Source: Gemmatimonadota bacterium
Lineage (GTDB): Bacteria; Gemmatimonadota; Gemmatimonadetes; JACCXV01
DNA length: 64,000 bases
Assembly (NCBI GenBank): GCA_036556205.1
Contig: DATBJW010000065.1
Location: 4,285-68,284 of the forward strand
Direction of reading: 5' to 3'
The translations under genes were made by a program, and so were the position numbers. The notes below the pieces were generated by a model. That model was not told the origin of the DNA and did not search any database. It worked only from the letters and a program-made list of their open reading frames with translations. Positions 12,393 to 61,822 of the stretch are shown here, in pieces; position 1 is the first letter of the stretch, and each line of letters begins with the position of its first letter.

Positions 12393-14636
12393 CTAGTCGA
12401 GCTTGAAGGCGATCTGCTGCTGGGTCCAGGTGGGAACCGCCACGTCGTCGCGCCGCGCCGGGTTGTAGACCGTGCGGCGGATCGCGTCGCTCGCGGCCTT
12501 GTCGAGCTCGGGCTGTCCCGAGGAGCGCAGCACGCGCACGTCCTCGACCCGGCCGGAGGCGTTCACGAGCGTCCAGAGGGTTACCGTGCCGCCGATGGCG
12601 CGTGCGGCGAGCGCCGGCGGGTACTGGGGCCGGATCGGCGTGCGCGGCGAGGCCCGCACGTCCACCGGAACGAAGGTCGGCGCGCGGCGGATCGCGGCGA
12701 GACTGTAGTCCGCCGCCGGCGCGCCGCCCGCCGCCGACTCGGGCTCGGGCACCGCGCCGCCGCTGTCCCGCCCGGCGGAGGAGGCGTCCGGCGCGTTCCG
12801 CGCGGCGACGTCCACGCTCACGACTTCCACCGTCGCCTCGGCGGGCCGGACCGAATCGACCGCCGAGGGGTCGCCGCGCGCGATCCCGGAATCCCCCGCC
12901 GAGGAGGGTGCGGCGACCAGCGGGGCGGGGGCCTGGTCGGGCGTGCGCGGGGCGCGGCCCTCGGCCGCGCTCGCGGGGGCCGCGGTGAAGGGGGCGGCGG
13001 CGGACTCGCGCAGCAGGCCGACGCGGGGGGTTGGCTCCTGTTTTTCCCGCGCCTCACCGCCCCGGTCGCCGTCCAATCCGGCGTCGGCCGCCCGGCGCGC
13101 GGTGTCCAGATCGGCCGACGCCTTCTGGATCTCGCTGCGCAGCGCCGAGATCCGTTGCTCCGCGTCGGCTTGCGAGACGTCACCGCTCTGAACGGACTGC
13201 GAGAGCCCGTGGAGGATCTGCTCCAGGCTGTCGATCCTGGACTGGCTGGCGGCGGCCTCGAGCATGAGGCTCCGGTAGTCGGCGCTCTTCAGCTCTTCGG
13301 CGGGACCGTGGACCATGTCCGAGAAGAAGACCACGTACCCGCTCGCCAGGACCGCGATCGCCCCCGCGCCCACGAGCGCGGCCGCGGTGCGCGATACGCG
13401 CGGCCGCCGGCGGCGATCCGGGGCGGCTCCCTTGAGGAGCACGGTGCGCGGGCCCGGGTCGGGCCGTCCCGCGGAGTGGGACTCGCGGGGCCAGGTCTCG
13501 GGCTCGAACGCGCGCGGCTCGACCGGGCGCGGAGCGGGAGAGGCGGGGGGCGTGATCGGCGCGGATGGAGCCGGCGCGAAGATCGTGCGGGGATCCGCGG
13601 GTGCCACACCCTTGGCCGGCGGCTCCGGCAGGGCGAAGGGATCGAGCGCAGGCTCGACGTGGTCGCCCGGCGCGTCGGGAAGCCGGATCGGGGCCTCGAA
13701 GAGCGGGAGGCCGCTCTCCTTCCCGCCGGCTCTCGAAGGCTCGCTCGGCGCCGCCCCCTCGTCGTAGGCCTCGTCCTCGGCCAGGCCGGAGAGGAGCCAG
13801 TCCGCGGAGTCCGCCTCTTCGCGGTGCTCGAAGTCGAAGGCCTCCCCCCGATTCGCGGCGTGGTCGGCTTCCTCGCTTCCGGGCGCGCCGCCGTACGCGT
13901 GACGCGTCCCCTCGTCGTGCAGGCGGAGCGCCTCCAGCAGCAGCGAAGAAGTGGGCTGGTTGATCGTCCGCGTGCCGTTGAACGCGCCGGCCTCGAAGCG
14001 GAAGCTGCCGCGCTTGACCGTCAGAAGCGAGCCGAGGGCCATCACCCCGGACTCCTCGTGGTAGCGCGCGTCCACGATCTCGCCTTGATCGAGCGCAATG
14101 CGCCCGTCCAGCATGCCGCCCGAGAGGACCAGGAGACCGGTCTTGCGACCCAGGTTCAGGAGCTGGACGATGTCGAGGATCTCGATGGTCTCGAGGTTGC
14201 CGCGAAAGATGCGCGCGTCGGGGCGCGCGGAATCGGGAGCGGTGGGTGCGGAGGGCGCGGGATCGAGCTCCGCGATCACGCCGTGGAGCTCGGCCACGAC
14301 GGTCGGCCAGCCGTCTTTCTTGTGCAGGACTCGCAGCGCGCCTTCGGCGCGACAGAGCGAGCCGATCTCTTGATCCTCGACCTCTGTGAGAACCACGACC
14401 GCCGGCGGCTCGAGGCCGGCCCGCTCACGCGCCGACCTGAGCTCGCGCAGGAAATGGAGGCCGTTCTTGTCGGGCAGCCGGGTCTCGGACACGATCAGGT
14501 CGAACGGGCGCTCGGCGTCGCACGTCAGGGCCTCGGCGACGCGCGACAGGAGCTCGACCTGATGGCCGGCGGCTCCGAGCTCGAGGGTGAGGTCGCGTTG
14601 AAACGCGCTGTCCCAGTCCAGGGAGAGGATTCGCAC
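12393..14636 (-). CDS. Fusion: atypical receiver + DUF4388-like domain + Pro-rich linker + TM + coiled coil + TonB C-terminal domain
   Basis: N-term RILSLD...DLIVSETRLPDKNG; FRGNLETIEILDIVQLLNLGRKTGLL (DUF4388-like); TM LVGAGAIAVLASGYVVFF; C-term PQYPPALAARAIGGTVTLWTLVNASGRVEDVRVLRSSG..LDKAA. Confidence 0.85.
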   Translation of the reverse strand: MRILSLDWDSAFQRDLTLELGAAGHQVELLSRVAEALTCDAERPFDLIVSETRLPDKNGLHFLRELRSARERAGLEPPAVVVLTEVEDQEIGSLCRAEGALRVLHKKDGWPTVVAELHGVIAELDPAPSAPTAPDSARPDARIFRGNLETIEILDIVQLLNLGRKTGLLVLSGGMLDGRIALDQGEIVDARYHEESGVMALGSLLTVKRGSFRFEAGAFNGTRTINQPTSSLLLEALRLHDEGTRHAYGGAPGSEEADHAANRGEAFDFEHREEADSADWLLSGLAEDEAYDEGAAPSEPSRAGGKESGLPLFEAPIRLPDAPGDHVEPALDPFALPEPPAKGVAPADPRTIFAPAPSAPITPPASPAPRPVEPRAFEPETWPRESHSAGRPDPGPRTVLLKGAAPDRRRRPRVSRTAAALVGAGAIAVLASGYVVFFSDMVHGPAEELKSADYRSLMLEAAASQSRIDSLEQILHGLSQSVQSGDVSQADAEQRISALRSEIQKASADLDTARRAADAGLDGDRGGEAREKQEPTPRVGLLRESAAAPFTAAPASAAEGRAPRTPDQAPAPLVAAPSSAGDSGIARGDPSAVDSVRPAEATVEVVSVDVAARNAPDASSAGRDSGGAVPEPESAAGGAPAADYSLAAIRRAPTFVPVDVRASPRTPIRPQYPPALAARAIGGTVTLWTLVNASGRVEDVRVLRSSGQPELDKAASDAIRRTVYNPARRDDVAVPTWTQQQIAFKLD

Positions 14637-15024
14637 GCGGTTCGTTCCTGTCGGGGTGGGGGCTCGCGGTCAGCTGCCTCGCGCCGGAACGCACGCGCGG
14701 GGCAGGAGATAGCGGCCTGGACGACATTCGGACACCGGCAATTTCTGTTCCGCCCGGGCCCATCCGGCGCAGGCGGCGTTTCAACCCTCTGCGTCCGTGA
14801 GGGTTACGTCGCGCGATGCATGGGTCCGAAGGCCTGAAAGGGACCGGGAGCCGGAGCCCCGCGATTGCAATTTCCCAAGCGCTCCCTCACGCTGCCGCGC
14901 GCGGAGCGCCCGGGCCGCTTCGGAGGCGTCGCGGGCGGCGCGAAGTCCGCCCGCGAACGTCCTCTTCAGGATCGCCGCTGCCTGGGTGGGGGGATGACCG
15001 TGCGGCGCTCCAGCCAGGTGCAAA

Positions 15025-15041
15025 AGCAGGCGACGTGCCAG
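15025..15041 (-). promoter_or_regulatory. Sigma54 (-24/-12) promoter
   Basis: CTGGCACGTCGCCTGCT gives TGGCACG-N4-CTGCT, GG-N10-GC, in the 560-bp intergenic region upstream of the TonB fusion. Confidence 0.6.
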
Positions 15042-15197
15042 CCTGCAGAGCGGGGATGGAGGTCGCGTCAGAAGTGATTGTTGATCAGCACGATAGCGAT
15101 TCTTGACGACCTCCTGGCGGAGGCCGTCGGGCGTGCGAAAGCGCGTCAACTGCGGGGTCCCGGAACGCGCCGGTGACCGATTTCCCGCGCCGGGCGG

Positions 15198-16589: not shown

Positions 16590-17702
16590 TCAGTCGTAGA
16601 CGCGCGGCGGGCTCCCCCGCAGCGCGTCGTCCAGGCCGAGCTCGGCTCGCAGCCGCTCGAGCTCGAAACCCCAGCGCTCGAGCATCTCCGCCCGCCGGCG
16701 CTCGGGAAGCAGCGCGCACTCCAGCCCCCCGAGGATCAGCCCCTCCACCGCCGACTGGCCCAGCCGGAACGTCCGGGCCATGGCCTCGAGCTCCCCCGCC
16801 AGCGTCGTGTCGAAGAGGGTCGGGTCGTCCGTGTTGATCGAGATCAGGAGGCCGGCCTGGAGGAAGCGCCGCAGCGGGAACTCGGCGAGCGAGGCCACGA
16901 CTCCGGTGCGCAGGTTGCTGGTCGGGTTGAGGGCGACCGGGATTCGCCGCTTGCGCAGCTCCTGCAGCAGACCCGGCTCGCCGGCCGCGGCCACGCCGTG
17001 GACGATGCGGTCGGCGGCCAGATCCTCGAGCGCCTCCCGAACGCTCTCGGTGCCGGCGGCCTCCCCGGCGTGAATGTCGGCGGCGAGGCCGTGGCGGCGG
17101 GCCTCGGCGAACACCTGCGCGAAGGCGCCCACGCGCTCGCTCCCCAGCGCGCCCGCCAGGCCGAGCGCGGGCCAGCGCGCACGCGGGAGCGGCGCCACGC
17201 GCTCGACGACCCGGGCCAGCGCATCCGGTCCGTGCTTCTGGACCCCATCCGCAATGAAGCGCAGCTCCGGCCCCCCCGCCGCCTCCACGGCGTCGGCCGC
17301 GGAGGTCAGCGCGTCCAGGATCTCGCCCAGCGGACGCCGGAAGAAGAGCAGCGCGCCGGCCGAGACGGAGAGCTCGGCATAGCGGATGCCGGCCGCCGCC
17401 AGCCCCGGCGCCACGTCCAGCAACGCCCCGACGTAGTCCTCCGGAGCGCGGAAGTGGTTCTCCAGCACCCAGCGGTAGAGCGCGAGGAAGCCCTCGAAGG
17501 AATCGAACCGGCGCCGCCGGTCGAGCTCGCCTTGCGTGGCGCCGGCCCACGGCAGCCCGTGGCGAGTTGCGGCGGCGTCCAGGAACGCCCCCGAGACCGC
17601 GCCCTCGAGGTGGACGTGGATCTCGGCCTTGGGCGCGCGGGCGAGGAAGGCCCGGAACGGATCCGCCGGATCGCCGGCCCCCGCGTGACGCCGCGCGCTC
17701 AC
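16590..17702 (-). CDS. Adenosine/adenine deaminase family (HxHxE type)
   Basis: PKAEIHVHLEG, IHAGE, RIVHG, LNPTSN, INTDDP; GTG 17702 overlaps the PNP stop (GTGA). Confidence 0.88.
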   Translation of the reverse strand: MSARRHAGAGDPADPFRAFLARAPKAEIHVHLEGAVSGAFLDAAATRHGLPWAGATQGELDRRRRFDSFEGFLALYRWVLENHFRAPEDYVGALLDVAPGLAAAGIRYAELSVSAGALLFFRRPLGEILDALTSAADAVEAAGGPELRFIADGVQKHGPDALARVVERVAPLPRARWPALGLAGALGSERVGAFAQVFAEARRHGLAADIHAGEAAGTESVREALEDLAADRIVHGVAAAGEPGLLQELRKRRIPVALNPTSNLRTGVVASLAEFPLRRFLQAGLLISINTDDPTLFDTTLAGELEAMARTFRLGQSAVEGLILGGLECALLPERRRAEMLERWGFELERLRAELGLDDALRGSPPRVYD

Positions 17703-18514
17703 GAAGGCAGGGCGCGCAGGAAGCCGCGCACGAGCGCTTCCAGGCGCGGTGCCGCGCGCGCCCCGGCCGCCACGACCTCGGCGTGGCTCAAGGGTTCGGT
17801 GGAGAGCCCCGCGGCGTGGTTCGTGAGGCACGAGACGGCCGCCACGCGCAGGCCGCGCTCGCGGGCGGCCAGCACCTCGGGAACGGTGGACATCCCGACC
17901 GCGTCGGCGCCCGCGCGGCGCAGAAACCGGACCTCGGCCGGAGTCTCGTAGCTGGGGCCGAGAACCGCCGCGTACACGCCCTCGGCCAGAGGCACGCCCG
18001 CGGCCGCGGCGGCCTCGCGCAGGAGTCGTCGCAGCTCGGGATCGTAGGGCTCCGACATGTCGGGGAACATGTCGTGGATCTCCGCGGGCGGACGCCCGAC
18101 GAGAGGGCTCGTCCACTGCAGGTTCAGCTGGTCCCGGACGAGGAGCAGGGTGCCCGGGGCCCAGCGCCGCCGAAGGCTGCCGGCCGCGTTCGTGACCAGC
18201 AGGATCCGGCCCCCCAGCTCGTGGAGGAGCCGCACGCCGGCCGAAACATCCCCCGGGCTGTGACCTTCGTAGAGGTGGAAGCGTCCTGAGAGGACGCAAA
18301 CGTCGTGGCCTGCGAGGCGGCCCAGGACGAGACGCCCCGCGTGGCCGGGCACGCTCACCCGCGGGAACCCGGGCAGATCCGCGTAGCCCGTCTCCCACAC
18401 GCGCTCCACCGCCCCGGCCAGAGCGTCGAGCCCCGAGCCGAGCAGGAGCCCGACCTCGGGCCTGAAGTCCGTCCGCGCGCGGACGGCCGCGGCGGCGGCG
18501 GACGCAGCCGCTAT
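17699..18514 (-). CDS. punA: Purine-nucleoside phosphorylase (trimeric PNP-I); probable ATA start
   Basis: GLLLGSGL, GRFHLYEG, TNAAG, GPSYETPAE, GADAVGMSTVPE, LTNHAAG; the conserved N-terminus lies upstream of the first canonical start (18409). Confidence 0.9.
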   Translation of the reverse strand: MAAASAAAAAVRARTDFRPEVGLLLGSGLDALAGAVERVWETGYADLPGFPRVSVPGHAGRLVLGRLAGHDVCVLSGRFHLYEGHSPGDVSAGVRLLHELGGRILLVTNAAGSLRRRWAPGTLLLVRDQLNLQWTSPLVGRPPAEIHDMFPDMSEPYDPELRRLLREAAAAAGVPLAEGVYAAVLGPSYETPAEVRFLRRAGADAVGMSTVPEVLAARERGLRVAAVSCLTNHAAGLSTEPLSHAEVVAAGARAAPRLEALVRGFLRALPS

Positions 18515-19209
18515 GCCTCCTCCTCCGGCGCGAGCTCCTCGCGGTCGGCGCCGGCCGGCGGCGTGCGGCCCGCCCTCCGCGCCGGGGCGCCCGCGGCGCG
18601 CCGCCGCTGCAGGAGCTTGATCACCCCCGGCAGCAGAGAGGCCACGACGACGATCACGATGATGACGTGGACGTAGCGATCCACGTCGGGGATCACGCGC
18701 CCCAGGAAGTAGCCCAGCAGCGTGAGCCCCCAGACCCAGAGCACGCTGCCCAGCAGGTTGTAGAGCATGAAGCGGCGGTAGTCCATGCGGCCCACGCCCG
18801 CCACGATGGGCGCGAAGGTGCGCACGATGGGCATGAAGCGCGCGATCACGATCGTGAACGGCCCGTGGCGATTGAAGAACTCCTGGGTCGTGATCAGGTG
18901 CCGGCGGTGGAAGAAGAGCGAGTCCTCGCGCGAGAAGATGCGCGGCCCGGTCTTGGCGCCGAACCAGTAGCCGACCATGGGACCCAGCACGGAGGCCACG
19001 CTCAGGACGCCGAGCAGGCTCCAGATCTCCAGCACGCCCGTGGCGGCGAACAGGCCGGCCGTGACGAGGAGCGAGTCTCCCGGCAGGAAGAAGCCCACGA
19101 AGAGGCCCGTCTCCGCGAACACGATCACGGTGAGCGCGACCAGCCCGCCGACGCGGATCCAGTGCTCGACGTCGTAGACCCGGTGCAGCAGATCGAGCAG
19201 GCCGTCCAT
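18511..19209 (-). CDS. DedA/VTT-family membrane protein
   Basis: FAETGLFVGFFLPGDSLL, ARFMPIVRTFAPIVAG. Confidence 0.95.
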   Translation of the reverse strand: MDGLLDLLHRVYDVEHWIRVGGLVALTVIVFAETGLFVGFFLPGDSLLVTAGLFAATGVLEIWSLLGVLSVASVLGPMVGYWFGAKTGPRIFSREDSLFFHRRHLITTQEFFNRHGPFTIVIARFMPIVRTFAPIVAGVGRMDYRRFMLYNLLGSVLWVWGLTLLGYFLGRVIPDVDRYVHVIIVIVVVASLLPGVIKLLQRRRAAGAPARRAGRTPPAGADREELAPEEEA

Positions 19210-59008: not shown

Positions 59009-61822
59009 TTAGAGGGTATACCCCAGGTCGAGCTTGATCTGGCGGCCCGCCTTGTACTCCCGGGTTCGGACATCGCCGAGCTCGTAGCGGTACTCGGCGT
59101 TGGTCAGATTCTCGATCGCGAGCTTGGCCATCATGGACTGGAAGAGCGGTTGTTCGAGCGTCACGTCGAAGGTGTGGCGCGGCAGCTCGTAGATGTCGTC
59201 GAAACCCTGCGTGCCGACCTGGTAGAGCCGCTTCCCGACGCCGTTGTAGAGCACGGTAGCGGTCGTTCCGACGGACGAGAGCGTGTAGTAGAGTGAAGCG
59301 TTCACGAGGAAGTCGGACTGCCCCGCCATCGGACGCTCGCTGTTCGTGAACACCTCGGGAGACAGCAGATCCGCGCCGCTGCTGCCGGCGGACCCCAGAA
59401 AGACCTCGACGGGCTCGTCTTGCTTCACCTTGGAGTCGGCGAGCGCGACGTTGCCCGAGATCCCGAGCCCCGTGAGACCCACCCGCGTCAGGTCTTGGCG
59501 CAACTCGAGCTCAACGCCGTAGACCTGCGCGCTGGGGGCGTTGTACGGCTCCGGAGATCCCACGTTCGTGCCGCCCGTCGGCAGGCGGACGATCTCGATG
59601 GGGTCGTTGAAGTACTTGTAGAAGACGCCGAGGGACACGATCTCGCCGGGTGCGGGGAACAGAGACCACCGCAGGTCGGCGTTGTAGATCGAGCCGTTCT
59701 GGAGGAAGGGATTCCCGAGGGTGCTCTCGAGGTAGTTGTCGTACCGGAAGGGGGCCAGCTCCCGGAAGTCGGGACGCACGATCGTGCGCGCCGCCGAGAC
59801 CTGCACGACCTGCTCGGTCGTGGGCTCCCAGCGCACGTTGAGCGTGGGCAGCGGCTCGACCGTGGACAGGTCGGCCGAAAGCGGGGTGATCGCCGCGCCG
59901 CTGCGGGGATCGAAAGCATCCACCTGCGTATCGTTGACCTCCACCCGCAGGCCCGGCGTCATCCGCACGCGACTCGAGAGCCCGATGTCGAGGCTGGCGA
60001 AGGCGGCGCCGCTCGGCTCCTTGGCCTCGTACTGGTCGGTCGCCTGTGTCGACTCGAGGAAGCGCAGGTCCCCGGCGGCGATGTTCGACGAGGTGAAGAG
60101 CTGATCGGGCGGCAGCTCGCGGACATCCTGGGTAGCCGCCTCGTAGCTGAACCGCCGGGCGTCGAAATCGCGGGTCCGGTAACCCCCGTAGAGGCCGGCC
60201 TCGATCAGGCTCTCGCCGAAGAGCCCCACGCGCGAGCTGAGCTTCAGGTTTCCCTGGAAGAGATTGTCCGACAAGGTCGAGAAGAATCGCCCGTTGTCGC
60301 CTGATTCGTTGAAGGCGAAAGTACCTTCCGTCGCCGACTGCTTCGTGTACCAGATCTGACGCGTGTCCGGCTCGTCGCGGTGGGTGTAGCCGTAGGAGGC
60401 GTCCCACTCCAGCCTGCCATCGCCCAGGGCCTGAACCTTGTGCTCGCCCCTGAGCAGCGTGCTGAGGAGCGTCCGCTCCACGAACGTCAGACGGTTGATG
60501 AGCGCGAAGCCGCTGGTCGAGAGGTCGAAGGGTCCCGTCACGATGCGCGTCTCGTCCTCCCCGTCCTGCGTGAACAGCACCTTCAGCGAGAGCCGATCGG
60601 TCTTGCCGACGTCCATGCTGTAGCCGCCCAGCACGCCCCAGAGCGCCTCCTCGCTGCCGATCTGCGAGTCGAAGTCGTACTGGAAGAGGTCGGATTCGAG
60701 GCTCGGGAAGAACTCGCTCTCGTCCCACGAATTCGTCTTGTACGAATAGCTGAGCCCGAGCGTGTAGCCGCCGTCCTTGCCGAAGAGGCGGCTCTTGTTT
60801 CCGAAGGAGAAGCCGAAGGACTTGTTGTAGTCGCCGAACTCCACGGGCTCGATTTCGCTCTGTCCCATCGGCTCGAACTCGGAGTGCAACTGCCCCGCCT
60901 GGGCCGGCGGAGTGGTGACCGAGATCAGGTCGGGCAGACCACCCGGCAGCGCGCGGGTGCCGTCGTCGATGCCCAGCCAGTCCGTGTCGCCTCCTGGATA
61001 GGTCACGACGTCGTTGTCGTTGTAGCTCGAGTTGTAGCCGATCCCGGTGGTGATGCGGAAGAAGCCCTCGTCGGGGATGTCCTTGGTCTGGATGTTCACG
61101 AGGCCGCCGGCGAAATTGCCCGGCAAGTCGGCCGTGAAGGACTTCACGGTGAAGACGCTCTCGATCATGTTCGTAGGGAAGAGGTCCAGCGGGACGACGC
61201 GCTTCTCGGGCTCCGGCGTGGGAAGCAGAGTGTTGTCGAGGAGTGCGGTCGAATAGCGTTCCCCCAGGCCCCGGACATAGACGTACTTGTCGTCCACGAT
61301 CGAGGCGCTCGAGACACGGCGCACGGCCTCGGCAGCGTCGGAGTCCGGCGCGCGCGCGATCTCCTGGGACGACACCCCGCTCACCACATTCATGGCGCTT
61401 CGCTGGTAGGAGAGGGCCGCCTCGACCGAGCCGCGCTCCTCCTGGGCCGTGACCTCCACCGTCACGCCCTCGGCGATCACGGCCTCGGCAACCATGCCGA
61501 CGTCCACGTTGGCCGGCGCTTCGGCCGTCACGGCCACACCGGATACGATCTTCTCGGCGTAGCCCAGGTAGAGCACCCGCAAGGCCTGCGTGCCCACGGG
61601 TACCCCGTCGAGCTCGTATTTCCCGTCCAGGTCCGTGAGGCCGCCGAGCTGGGTTCCTTGCACGTACACCTCGGCCCCCACCAGCGGATCACCGGTCTCC
61701 GAGTCCACGATCTTGCCTTGAATGCGGCCCCCGGCGGCCGCTTCCTGCGCGACGAGGCCGGAGCCACCGGCCGCGCACGCGAGGACGAGCAGCCACGCCA
61801 CGCAAACAAGTCGACGCATCAT
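59009..61822 (-). CDS. TonB-dependent receptor with N-terminal CarboxypepD_reg-like domain
   Basis: Signal peptide, GKIVDSETGDPLVGA, ARAPDSDAAEAVRRV, YVRGLGERY, PDFRELAP, NLTN...KLDLGYTL. Confidence 0.93.
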   Translation of the reverse strand: MMRRLVCVAWLLVLACAAGGSGLVAQEAAAGGRIQGKIVDSETGDPLVGAEVYVQGTQLGGLTDLDGKYELDGVPVGTQALRVLYLGYAEKIVSGVAVTAEAPANVDVGMVAEAVIAEGVTVEVTAQEERGSVEAALSYQRSAMNVVSGVSSQEIARAPDSDAAEAVRRVSSASIVDDKYVYVRGLGERYSTALLDNTLLPTPEPEKRVVPLDLFPTNMIESVFTVKSFTADLPGNFAGGLVNIQTKDIPDEGFFRITTGIGYNSSYNDNDVVTYPGGDTDWLGIDDGTRALPGGLPDLISVTTPPAQAGQLHSEFEPMGQSEIEPVEFGDYNKSFGFSFGNKSRLFGKDGGYTLGLSYSYKTNSWDESEFFPSLESDLFQYDFDSQIGSEEALWGVLGGYSMDVGKTDRLSLKVLFTQDGEDETRIVTGPFDLSTSGFALINRLTFVERTLLSTLLRGEHKVQALGDGRLEWDASYGYTHRDEPDTRQIWYTKQSATEGTFAFNESGDNGRFFSTLSDNLFQGNLKLSSRVGLFGESLIEAGLYGGYRTRDFDARRFSYEAATQDVRELPPDQLFTSSNIAAGDLRFLESTQATDQYEAKEPSGAAFASLDIGLSSRVRMTPGLRVEVNDTQVDAFDPRSGAAITPLSADLSTVEPLPTLNVRWEPTTEQVVQVSAARTIVRPDFRELAPFRYDNYLESTLGNPFLQNGSIYNADLRWSLFPAPGEIVSLGVFYKYFNDPIEIVRLPTGGTNVGSPEPYNAPSAQVYGVELELRQDLTRVGLTGLGISGNVALADSKVKQDEPVEVFLGSAGSSGADLLSPEVFTNSERPMAGQSDFLVNASLYYTLSSVGTTATVLYNGVGKRLYQVGTQGFDDIYELPRHTFDVTLEQPLFQSMMAKLAIENLTNAEYRYELGDVRTREYKAGRQIKLDLGYTL

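Follow-up and report, generated by a model that had tools for sequence, protein, structure and literature searches.

A membrane protein joining a pseudo-receiver and PATAN to a TonB C-terminal domain in Gemmatimonadota, with a possible link to type IV pili

Introduction

The TonB C-terminal domain (TonB_C) is usually read as a sign of nutrient uptake, but TonB_C proteins that serve other machines have been described. In Myxococcus, GltG (PglI; FHA-FHA-transmembrane helix-TonB_C) and GltJ (AgmX; ZnR-GYF-transmembrane helix-TonB_C) connect polarity factors in the cytoplasm with those parts of the motility machine that lie in the periplasm and outer membrane; their cytoplasmic portions bind MglA, AglZ, and GltI, and their periplasmic ends bind machine components rather than siderophore receptors (PMC11135422, PMC11761067). 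In Pseudomonas aeruginosa, TonB3/PocAB is needed for pilus assembly, and a contact has been proposed between TonB3 and PilQ's N0 domain, which resembles the signaling domain of TonB-dependent receptors (TBDRs) (PMC5285504). On the cytoplasmic side, the Synechocystis PATAN domain (DUF4388/PatA_N) is an output domain that alone binds the N-terminal region of PilB1 as well as PilC's N-terminal domain at the membrane (bioRxiv 10.1101/2021.06.11.447907), and PATAN proteins are among the SgmX-associated candidates of M. xanthus (PMC11580455). Here, we describe a gene that combines a receiver domain, PATAN, and TonB_C. It is an open reading frame (ORF) on the minus strand, 12393..14636, of a 64,000-nucleotide stretch (hereafter the window; C65:4285-68284, contig DATBJW010000065.1) of a Gemmatimonadota metagenome-assembled genome (MAG; GCA_036556205.1) of 2.8 Mb in 95 contigs, which is 89% complete.

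The general design of this fusion protein is already known from GltG and GltJ, and the combination of PATAN and a receiver with TonB_C is new as far as the literature we found: no description of either domain fused to TonB_C was encountered, the DUF4388 papers being judged mainly by titles and abstracts. By analogy with the systems above, the protein could act in a type IV pilus (T4P) or pilus-like system as an adaptor spanning the envelope, resembling GltG/GltJ or TonB3. This is the reading we tentatively favor, and we regard it as falling a little short of probable; both the partners of the protein and its link to pili are what we infer. It is probably not a TonB for nutrient uptake.

Domain architecture and topology

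The fusion gene starts with GTG and encodes a product of 747 amino acids (aa), and its GC content by codon position (0.76/0.55/0.90) shows the pattern of real genes in this ~70% GC genome. Pfam assigned Response_reg to residues 7-107 at 30.0 bits, just below the gathering cutoff of 30.2, DUF4388/PATAN (PF14332) to residues 145-242 at 68.4 bits (cutoff 25), and TonB_C (PF03544) to residues 669-746 at 65.6 bits, while NCBIfam tonB_Cterm (TIGR01352) scored 63.3 bits, both TonB_C matches lying far over their cutoffs. An AlphaFold2 (AF2) model, built with six orthologues, comprises the receiver (REC, residues 1-124), PATAN (143-247), disorder (246-417), a transmembrane (TM) helix (418-441), helices (452-533), disorder (534-673), and a TonB_C fold (674-747). 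The original prediction, made from the sequence alone, had proposed a receiver followed by a DUF4388-like domain, a proline-rich acidic linker, one TM helix, a coiled coil, and TonB_C; Pfam, NCBIfam, AF2, and composition recovered each of these elements, including the TonB_C at the C-terminus.

The coordinates below all refer to the minus strand of the window. The cytoplasmic part begins with the receiver, here a pseudo-receiver (REC*, residues 1-124; 14265..14636), defined by Pfam, HMMER, MAFFT, AF2, Foldseek, and the ratio of nonsynonymous to synonymous substitution rates (dN/dS). It continues with PATAN (residues 143-247; 13896..14210), defined by PF14332, by an AF2 model of the domain alone, and by dN/dS. 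Modeled in this way, PATAN reached a predicted local distance difference test score (pLDDT) of 86 and a predicted TM-score of 0.78. A Foldseek search of this model against the PDB returned no significant match (best E 0.12, TM <0.41) and therefore gave no structural clue to the PATAN partner. The linker that follows (residues 248-417; 13386..13895), recognized by pLDDT, composition, and dN/dS, is disordered (pLDDT <40), acidic, and rich in proline and alanine (P 18%, A 16%, E 11%, D 7%; net charge -11).

The single TM helix, AAALVGAGAIAVLASGYVVFFSDM (residues 418-441; 13314..13385), was located by AF2, a hydropathy scan, and a sequence check. The 15 residues before it carry a charge of +5 (RRRRPRVSR) and the 15 after it -1, which indicates an N-in/C-out topology. 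On the periplasmic side, a juxtamembrane coiled coil (residues 452-533; 13038..13283), identified from AF2 helices and invariant alignment columns, consists of helices 452-484 and 489-533 (pLDDT 84-90). It leads into a disordered linker (residues 534-668; 12633..13037) that pLDDT (~30) and composition mark as rich in alanine, proline, and serine (A 24%, P 14%, S 10%). The protein ends in TonB_C (residues 669-747; 12396..12632), supported by PF03544, TIGR01352, and dN/dS and containing the YP motif QYPPALAARAIGGTV (QYPPAL...). Measured against the 88% orthologue, dN/dS is lowest in REC (0.14), followed by PATAN (0.16) and TonB_C (0.24), and reaches 0.67 in the cytoplasmic linker. The folded domains are kept by purifying selection.

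Association with sigma54-type promoters and minor-pilin genes

In three diverged relatives, L005, L008, and L009 (orthologues with 46-51% identity), the fusion gene stands last after a series of minor-pilin genes on one strand. The order is (Lgt), GspH-like, N_methyl, PilW, and PilX_N (about 610-650 aa), then in some a 113-aa gene, the fusion gene, FAD oxidase, acyltransferase, GAF, and amidohydrolase. In the window and in the 88% relative L014, the order is instead Lgt, MscL, a 560-nt gap, the fusion gene, FAD oxidase, acyltransferase, and GAF. Compared with L008 1703-5617, window 14637-15197 lacks the four minor-pilin genes that separate Lgt from the fusion gene in relatives; the lineage of the window and L014 has lost them from this place, and MscL adjoins Lgt. 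Pilins with 60% identity to those of L008 form a set at the end of contig C15 (86505-88562), and either the pilin cluster appears to have been relocated in this genome or the assembly is broken at the C15 end. The 113-aa gene, which in L005 separates the pilins from the fusion gene, was considered as a core partner and rejected, being present elsewhere only in L006 and L009 and absent from L008, L014, and the window.

Two sigma54-type promoter elements precede the fusion gene on the minus strand. The proximal one, a -24/-12 element (GGAACAGAAATTGC; 14738..14751) found as a consensus match, lies ~100 nt upstream of the GTG start. Its pattern, GGAAY-N-GAAW-TTGC with GG-N10-GC spacing, occurs once per locus and 60-105 nt ahead of the fusion-gene start in 6/6 loci (window, L005, L006, L008, L009, and L014); the window holds one copy against 0 expected by chance, and the element is unique in the 2.8-Mb genome. 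The distal one (TGGCACGTCGCCTGC; 15026..15040), together with a conserved leader block, was recognized by alignment and by blastn to the pilin leaders of relatives. Its motif, TGGCAC-N5-YTGC, is present as a single copy in each of L005, L008, and L009, where it precedes the first pilin gene by 130-175 nt. The window upstream region, including the downstream block CCCCAGGCAGCGGCG, aligns with these pilin promoters, and blastn of the window distal promoter region against the L008 and L009 pilin leaders gave 75-76% identity over 80-88 nt. This homology to both promoter and leader suggests that the same promoter now stands upstream of the fusion gene after loss of the pilins.

The genome encodes rpoN and at least 11 NtrC-type activator loci, and expression of the fusion gene is predicted to depend on sigma54. 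The simplest history would be an ancestral sigma54 minor-pilin operon with the fusion gene last and an internal sigma54 promoter of its own; in the window lineage, the pilin genes separating the two promoters would then have been lost. The sigma54 minor-pilin link in relatives points to type IV pili and away from nutrient uptake. Machinery of the relevant kinds is present in the genome, with two PilB-class (C9:25887 and C64:73829) and several PilT-like T4P ATPases, three secretins (C64:82719, C15:54011, and C52:13333), at least three minor-pilin sets (with PilX_N proteins on C15 and C66), and both MglA and MglB. The clear MglA small GTPase (C15:36534-37112) lies within C15:36534-37580 (-) with a Roadblock/MglB gene upstream, near recR and ybaB, and a second Roadblock-like gene is found at C66:56401-56850.

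Several observations weigh against a role in pili. The pilin genes are adjacent to the fusion gene in neither the window nor its 88% relative L014, and the whole region is unusually syntenic among relatives (Lgt ... FAD oxidase, acyltransferase, GAF, amidohydrolase, PPase, ABC, M61 peptidase), so that the pilin adjacency could be non-functional and is by itself moderate evidence. The sigma54 elements are consensus matches, i.e., sequence predictions, and the proximal pattern was counted in the same sequences from which it was derived. Both paralog types of the fusion gene, described below, have unrelated neighbors (SURF1/GAF, Tol-Pal/LptD, and fumarase/SDR). Finally, a canonical, high-scoring TonB_C with a YP motif fits ordinary TBDR binding equally well.

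Two minor features were observed around these promoters. A block, (T)CCCCC-N-ACCCCAGGCAGCGGCG-N-TCC, lies ~35 nt downstream of the distal -12 and is kept in the window and the three diverged relatives; the leader-block spans are 14960-15045 (-) in the window, 5518-5600 in L005, 1514-1595 in L008, 69-150 in L009, and about 5400-5480 in L014, where the aligned stretch stops at the first Cs of the block. It may function as a leader RNA element or as an operator. In addition, a one-mismatch relative of the proximal element, GGAACGGGAATTGC, occurs at G000:C37:17632 (+), just upstream of a PATAN-only ORF (C37:about 17700-18716) on the same contig as tolQ-tolR-tolA, and PATAN proteins may thus share a sigma54 regulon.

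A conserved pseudo-receiver

Because the Pfam score of the receiver was borderline, its fold was checked by AF2 and Foldseek. The model is a (beta-alpha)5 CheY-like fold (pLDDT ~80), and Foldseek matched it to the receivers of KdpE, PhoP, and RpfC (target TM-score ~0.8, E ~3e-6). Glu51 of FDLIVSETRLPD (LIVSETRLPD), encoded by the GAG codon at 14484-14486, sits on the phospho-Asp in HMMER alignments with RpfC (3m6m), SenB (9qih), and BasR/PmrA (3w9s), and in a MAFFT alignment with CheY the change is D57->E, with the equivalents of T87 and K109 kept. No Asp aligns at the acceptor position by either method, as the reading of LIVSE in the original prediction had implied. The switch residues Thr84 and Lys105/106 are retained, K106 being invariant in a 9-sequence alignment, and the acidic pair of CheY (D12, D13) reads D7-W8-D9, of which D7 and D9 are invariant. 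W8 was considered as proof of lost metal binding and rejected, as the D-x-D form is a subfamily trait that is also present in myxobacterial REC-PATAN relatives with an acceptor Asp.

Glu occupies the acceptor position in every orthologue (P0003-P0010, P0020, P0021, P0027, and P0064; MAFFT) and in the C55-type paralogs (C55p, P0030, and P0137), and Ala in the C57 paralog; the Asp is kept in distant Myxococcales REC-PATAN-TM-TPR proteins (P0011, P0014-P0017). Since every TonB_C-linked member has Glu or Ala at this site, phospho-signaling in the two-component sense is unlikely, and the earlier suggestion of a signal-regulated protein is improbable in that sense, whereas control by localization is still plausible. 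The receiver has the lowest dN/dS of all segments, which argues that it is a maintained rather than a decaying pseudo-receiver with no phospho-switch, and it probably acts as a docking or conformational module. Natural pseudo-receivers in which Glu or another residue replaces the phospho-Asp include the plant pseudo-response regulators, Chlamydia ChxR, and the AglZ/FrzS-type receivers of Myxococcus, in which the fold is intact, phosphorylation is not needed, and the role is constitutive or one of docking. Their outputs (transcription, clock, and coiled-coil scaffolds) are unrelated to that of the fusion protein, and none of them is known to be fused to PATAN and TonB_C.

The PatA-type regulators (PixG, PixE, LsiR, and PilG of Synechocystis and PatA of Anabaena) likewise carry PATAN (PF14332) beside a receiver, but in the order PATAN-REC rather than REC-PATAN. 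Their receivers are phosphorylatable, whereas the fusion receiver has Glu, and they are soluble proteins without TM or TonB_C, whereas the fusion protein is membrane-anchored. The fusion family offers a natural, strictly conserved Asp-to-Glu pseudo-receiver joined to PATAN, for which only PilB and PilC have been tested as partners, and a testable model of PATAN anchoring at the membrane, a point left open by the Synechocystis work.

Proposed mode of action and comparison with gliding and pilus proteins

If the fusion protein is a pilus adaptor, REC*-PATAN would form a constitutive cytoplasmic protein-docking module in which the pseudo-receiver would not be phosphorylatable and PATAN would be the part that attaches to the motor or platform of the pilus (PilB/PilC) or to polarity factors linked to MglA. 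The periplasmic coiled coil would dimerize, and the flexible linker of about 135 residues would span the periplasm and bring TonB_C toward the outer membrane. There, TonB_C would use beta-strand augmentation to hook a partner in the periplasm or outer membrane, such as a secretin N0 or a TonB-box-like strand. In this way, the protein would couple or position two ends of a machine, as GltG/GltJ do in gliding and PocAB-TonB3 in Pseudomonas pili, and its gene would be sigma54-expressed and ancestrally co-transcribed with minor pilins.

The likeness to GltJ and GltG, drawn from published descriptions, lies in the cytoplasmic docking modules, long disordered linker, single TM helix, flexible periplasmic segment, and TonB_C-like end (PMC11135422, PMC11761067). 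The modules themselves are unrelated, being FHA-FHA or ZnR-GYF in the Myxococcus proteins and a pseudo-receiver with PATAN here. Neither an extra stator of the AglRQS type nor Glt partners were detected in the 89%-complete assembly, and in genomic context the Gemmatimonadota family goes with minor pilins and not with glt genes. PocAB-TonB3 offers a TonB-family protein that acts in T4P assembly or localization and not in nutrient uptake (PMC5285504), but TonB3 is a short, classical TonB with an ExbBD-like PocAB and has neither REC nor PATAN, both of which are present in the fusion protein. Together with GltG/GltJ and TonB3, the fusion family would be a third, independent case of TonB_C with a cytoplasmic docking module tied to motility or pili, and the comparison suggests that TonB_C may be a general periplasmic hook reused by trans-envelope machines.

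The same resemblances can be read without any relation to pili, as those of a component of Tol-Pal-like envelope integrity or division, or of Agl-Glt-like gliding, equivalent to TolA or to GltG/GltJ. The helical periplasmic domain with a TonB_C-like end resembles TolA (a weak NCBIfam tolA_full match, E 0.0038), the REC-less relative P0023 adjoins tolB-pal-lptD, and MglA/MglB are present beside a layout common to GltG and GltJ (PMC11761067). However, both stators of the genome are already partnered and no AglRQS-like third motor was found in the 89%-complete assembly, Pfam detected no FHA, ZnR, or GYF domain in the fusion protein, and its orthologues sit with pilins rather than with tol or glt genes; we consider this reading very improbable.

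Nearly as improbable is an outside-in relay of the FecR type, in which TonB_C would read the state of an outer-membrane protein and the TM helix and coiled coil would signal to REC*-PATAN, which would then act on a motor or regulator and change its activity or its polarity. FecR-type anti-sigma factors provide the parallel, as they combine a cytoplasmic effector, one TM helix, and a periplasmic domain that binds an outer-membrane receptor. The juxtamembrane coiled coil is the most conserved segment on the periplasmic side in the orthologue alignment, its start being especially well kept (ADYRSLMLEAAAxQAKIDSLEQ, invariant columns), as would be expected of a transmission element, and cyanobacterial PATAN serves as an output domain (bioRxiv 10.1101/2021.06.11.447907). 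Against a relay stand the lack of any sequence relationship to FecR and the long linkers, disordered in the cytoplasm and periplasm alike, which are poor conformational conduits. Nor does an ECF sigma gene adjoin the fusion gene with any consistency; the single case, in L008, lies several genes downstream and on the opposite strand.

Relation to classical TonB proteins and stators

The main rival to the pilus adaptor is an orphan TonB paralogue that would be energized in trans by ExbB-ExbD or TolQ-TolR and would in turn energize TBDRs, with REC*-PATAN regulating or localizing it. The fusion protein shares with Escherichia coli TonB, and with the TonB encoded on contig C66, an N-in single-pass topology, a long periplasmic spacer, and a canonical, high-scoring TonB_C with a YP motif. 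TBDRs are present in the genome, and the one in the window, already pointed out at 59009-61822 (-), is real (CarboxypepD_reg, Plug, and beta-barrel, in an Oar/SusC-like layout). Several TonBs per genome for different receptors are common, and an exbB-exbD-exbD operon able to act in trans exists.

Only two MotA/ExbB-family and three ExbD-family genes were found in the assembly, distributed between a tonB-exbB-exbD-exbD operon (C66) and a tolQ-tolR-tolA-like cluster (C37), and both stators are already paired with their own TonB/TolA-like partner bearing the S-x3-H motif. No flagellar or AglR-type extra stator was seen in the 89%-complete assembly. The genome has nine TonB_C matches, and in four of the corresponding ORFs (C66, C3, C37, and C15) the N-terminus is short and the TM helix bears S-x3-H. 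The TM helix of the fusion protein, in contrast, lacks both His and S-x3-H, and 417 cytoplasmic residues precede it, where classical TonB has few. The spacer differs as well: in place of the rigid proline-rich (EP)n/(KP)n spacer of classical TonB, the fusion protein has an 82-residue coiled coil and a 135-residue Ala/Pro/Ser-rich linker (P 14%) with no EP/KP repeats. The classical tonB on C66 is encoded with exbBD, but at the level of gene neighborhood neither exbBD nor a TBDR gene adjoins the fusion gene or its relatives in the seven loci examined, and the predicted ancestral operon partners are sigma54 minor pilins rather than iron or nutrient genes.

The missing S-x3-H and the conserved minor-pilin link weaken the idea of an energy transducer for TBDRs, and we regard an orphan TonB as rather unlikely. 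Of the earlier claim of a periplasmic energy transducer, the canonical TonB_C thus stands, while these two features tell against the function. The original prediction was also correct that no exbBD is adjacent, and it regarded the long cytoplasmic N-terminus as unusual for a TonB; this is true of canonical TonB anchors, which are short, but GltG and GltJ provide a precedent (PMC11135422, PMC11761067). A different kind of TonB_C protein is encoded at C20:17810-18847 (-), which specifies 345 aa; its N-terminus resembles a signal peptide, and it has two TonB_C domains in tandem but lacks a TonB-type anchor. Such multi-TonB_C proteins were common among the family-search matches.

Paralogs and distribution

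Two further ORFs of the same plan occur in the genome. One, at C55:53454-55844, has REC (66.8 bits), a sub-threshold PATAN (22 bits), one TM helix, and TonB_C (56 bits), and its neighbors are fumarase, SDR, and a large Ig-repeat protein. The other, at C57:7277-9112, has REC (22 bits), PATAN (20.5 bits), a TM helix near the C-terminus, and TonB_C (41 bits), next to Hsp20, MsrA, a glycosyltransferase, and a 182-aa ORF without a Pfam match. Inspection of the neighbors of these two paralogs yielded no functional clue. The C57 paralog (region C57:6726-9112 (+)) also contains a TPR-like helical insert, and its TM helix lies only ~70 residues ahead of TonB_C; it starts 3 nt past the stop of the 182-aa ORF, whose product may be a partner made by translational coupling.

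When residues 136-747 were searched exhaustively by HMMER against 1.84 billion cluster representatives, only 13 matches fell below 1e-30. Local domain mapping and Pfam resolved three recurrent types, namely REC*-PATAN-TM-coiled coil-TonB_C, REC*-(weak PATAN)-TM-TonB_C, and a REC-less PATAN-TM-coiled coil-TonB_C (P0023, P0044, and P0045). PATAN matches that overlapped TonB_C in multi-TonB_C proteins in an iterated local hidden Markov model search were spurious and were discarded, the true PATAN and TonB_C set being obtained through Pfam. The combination of receiver, DUF4388, and TonB_C thus recurs, but in relatives from one family. Within the order, matches were found in 3/4 genomes of the same GTDB family (the MAG itself, G122, and G123) and in 0/31 of the sister family, and all three types are present in the sister genus G123. 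No match at E <= 1e-15 was obtained in 120 other genomes sampled across the phylum, and the named relative found with an orthologue-only alignment is one Gemmatimonadota MAG. By these searches, the fusion family appears to be lineage-specific, confined to one GTDB family of Gemmatimonadota. That family is uncultured, which limits immediate experimental reach. In source databases, the members are labeled "protein TonB" or "CheY-like chemotaxis protein", names that are unsuitable for proteins of this kind.

The three paralog types invite a bolder version of the adaptor reading, in which they would form a new class of trans-envelope couplers for pilus or secretin machines. PATAN would clamp a PilB/PilC-type motor and TonB_C the N0 of one of the three secretins, the couplers would replace or supplement the PilMNOP/GspL-GspC alignment complex, and the Glu-locked receiver would mimic a permanent "on" state. 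The genome has as many fusion paralogs as secretins, three of each, and at least three minor-pilin sets; this match in number could be a coincidence. Taken jointly, these propositions are speculative, and we consider the set doubtful.

Outside the family, the Myxococcales proteins mentioned above (P0011 and the Archangium proteins among P0014-P0017, such as P0014 and P0017) are 840-1010 aa long and appear to represent a parallel design of REC-PATAN, TM, and periplasmic binder. Their REC-PATAN module is 26-30% identical to that of the fusion protein, and they likewise have a long proline-rich linker, one TM helix (in most of them), and a helical, coiled-coil extracytoplasmic region. They differ in keeping the acceptor Asp and in ending with TPR repeats where the fusion protein has TonB_C. 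To our knowledge, these proteins are uncharacterized.

Further downstream of the fusion gene, the GTP cyclohydrolase I genes of two relatives (L005 20741-22196 and L014 14739-16061) seem to be split by an intein, as faint Pfam matches to Intein_splicing, PT-HINT, or LAGLIDADG_3 lie between two GTP_cyclohydroI matches.

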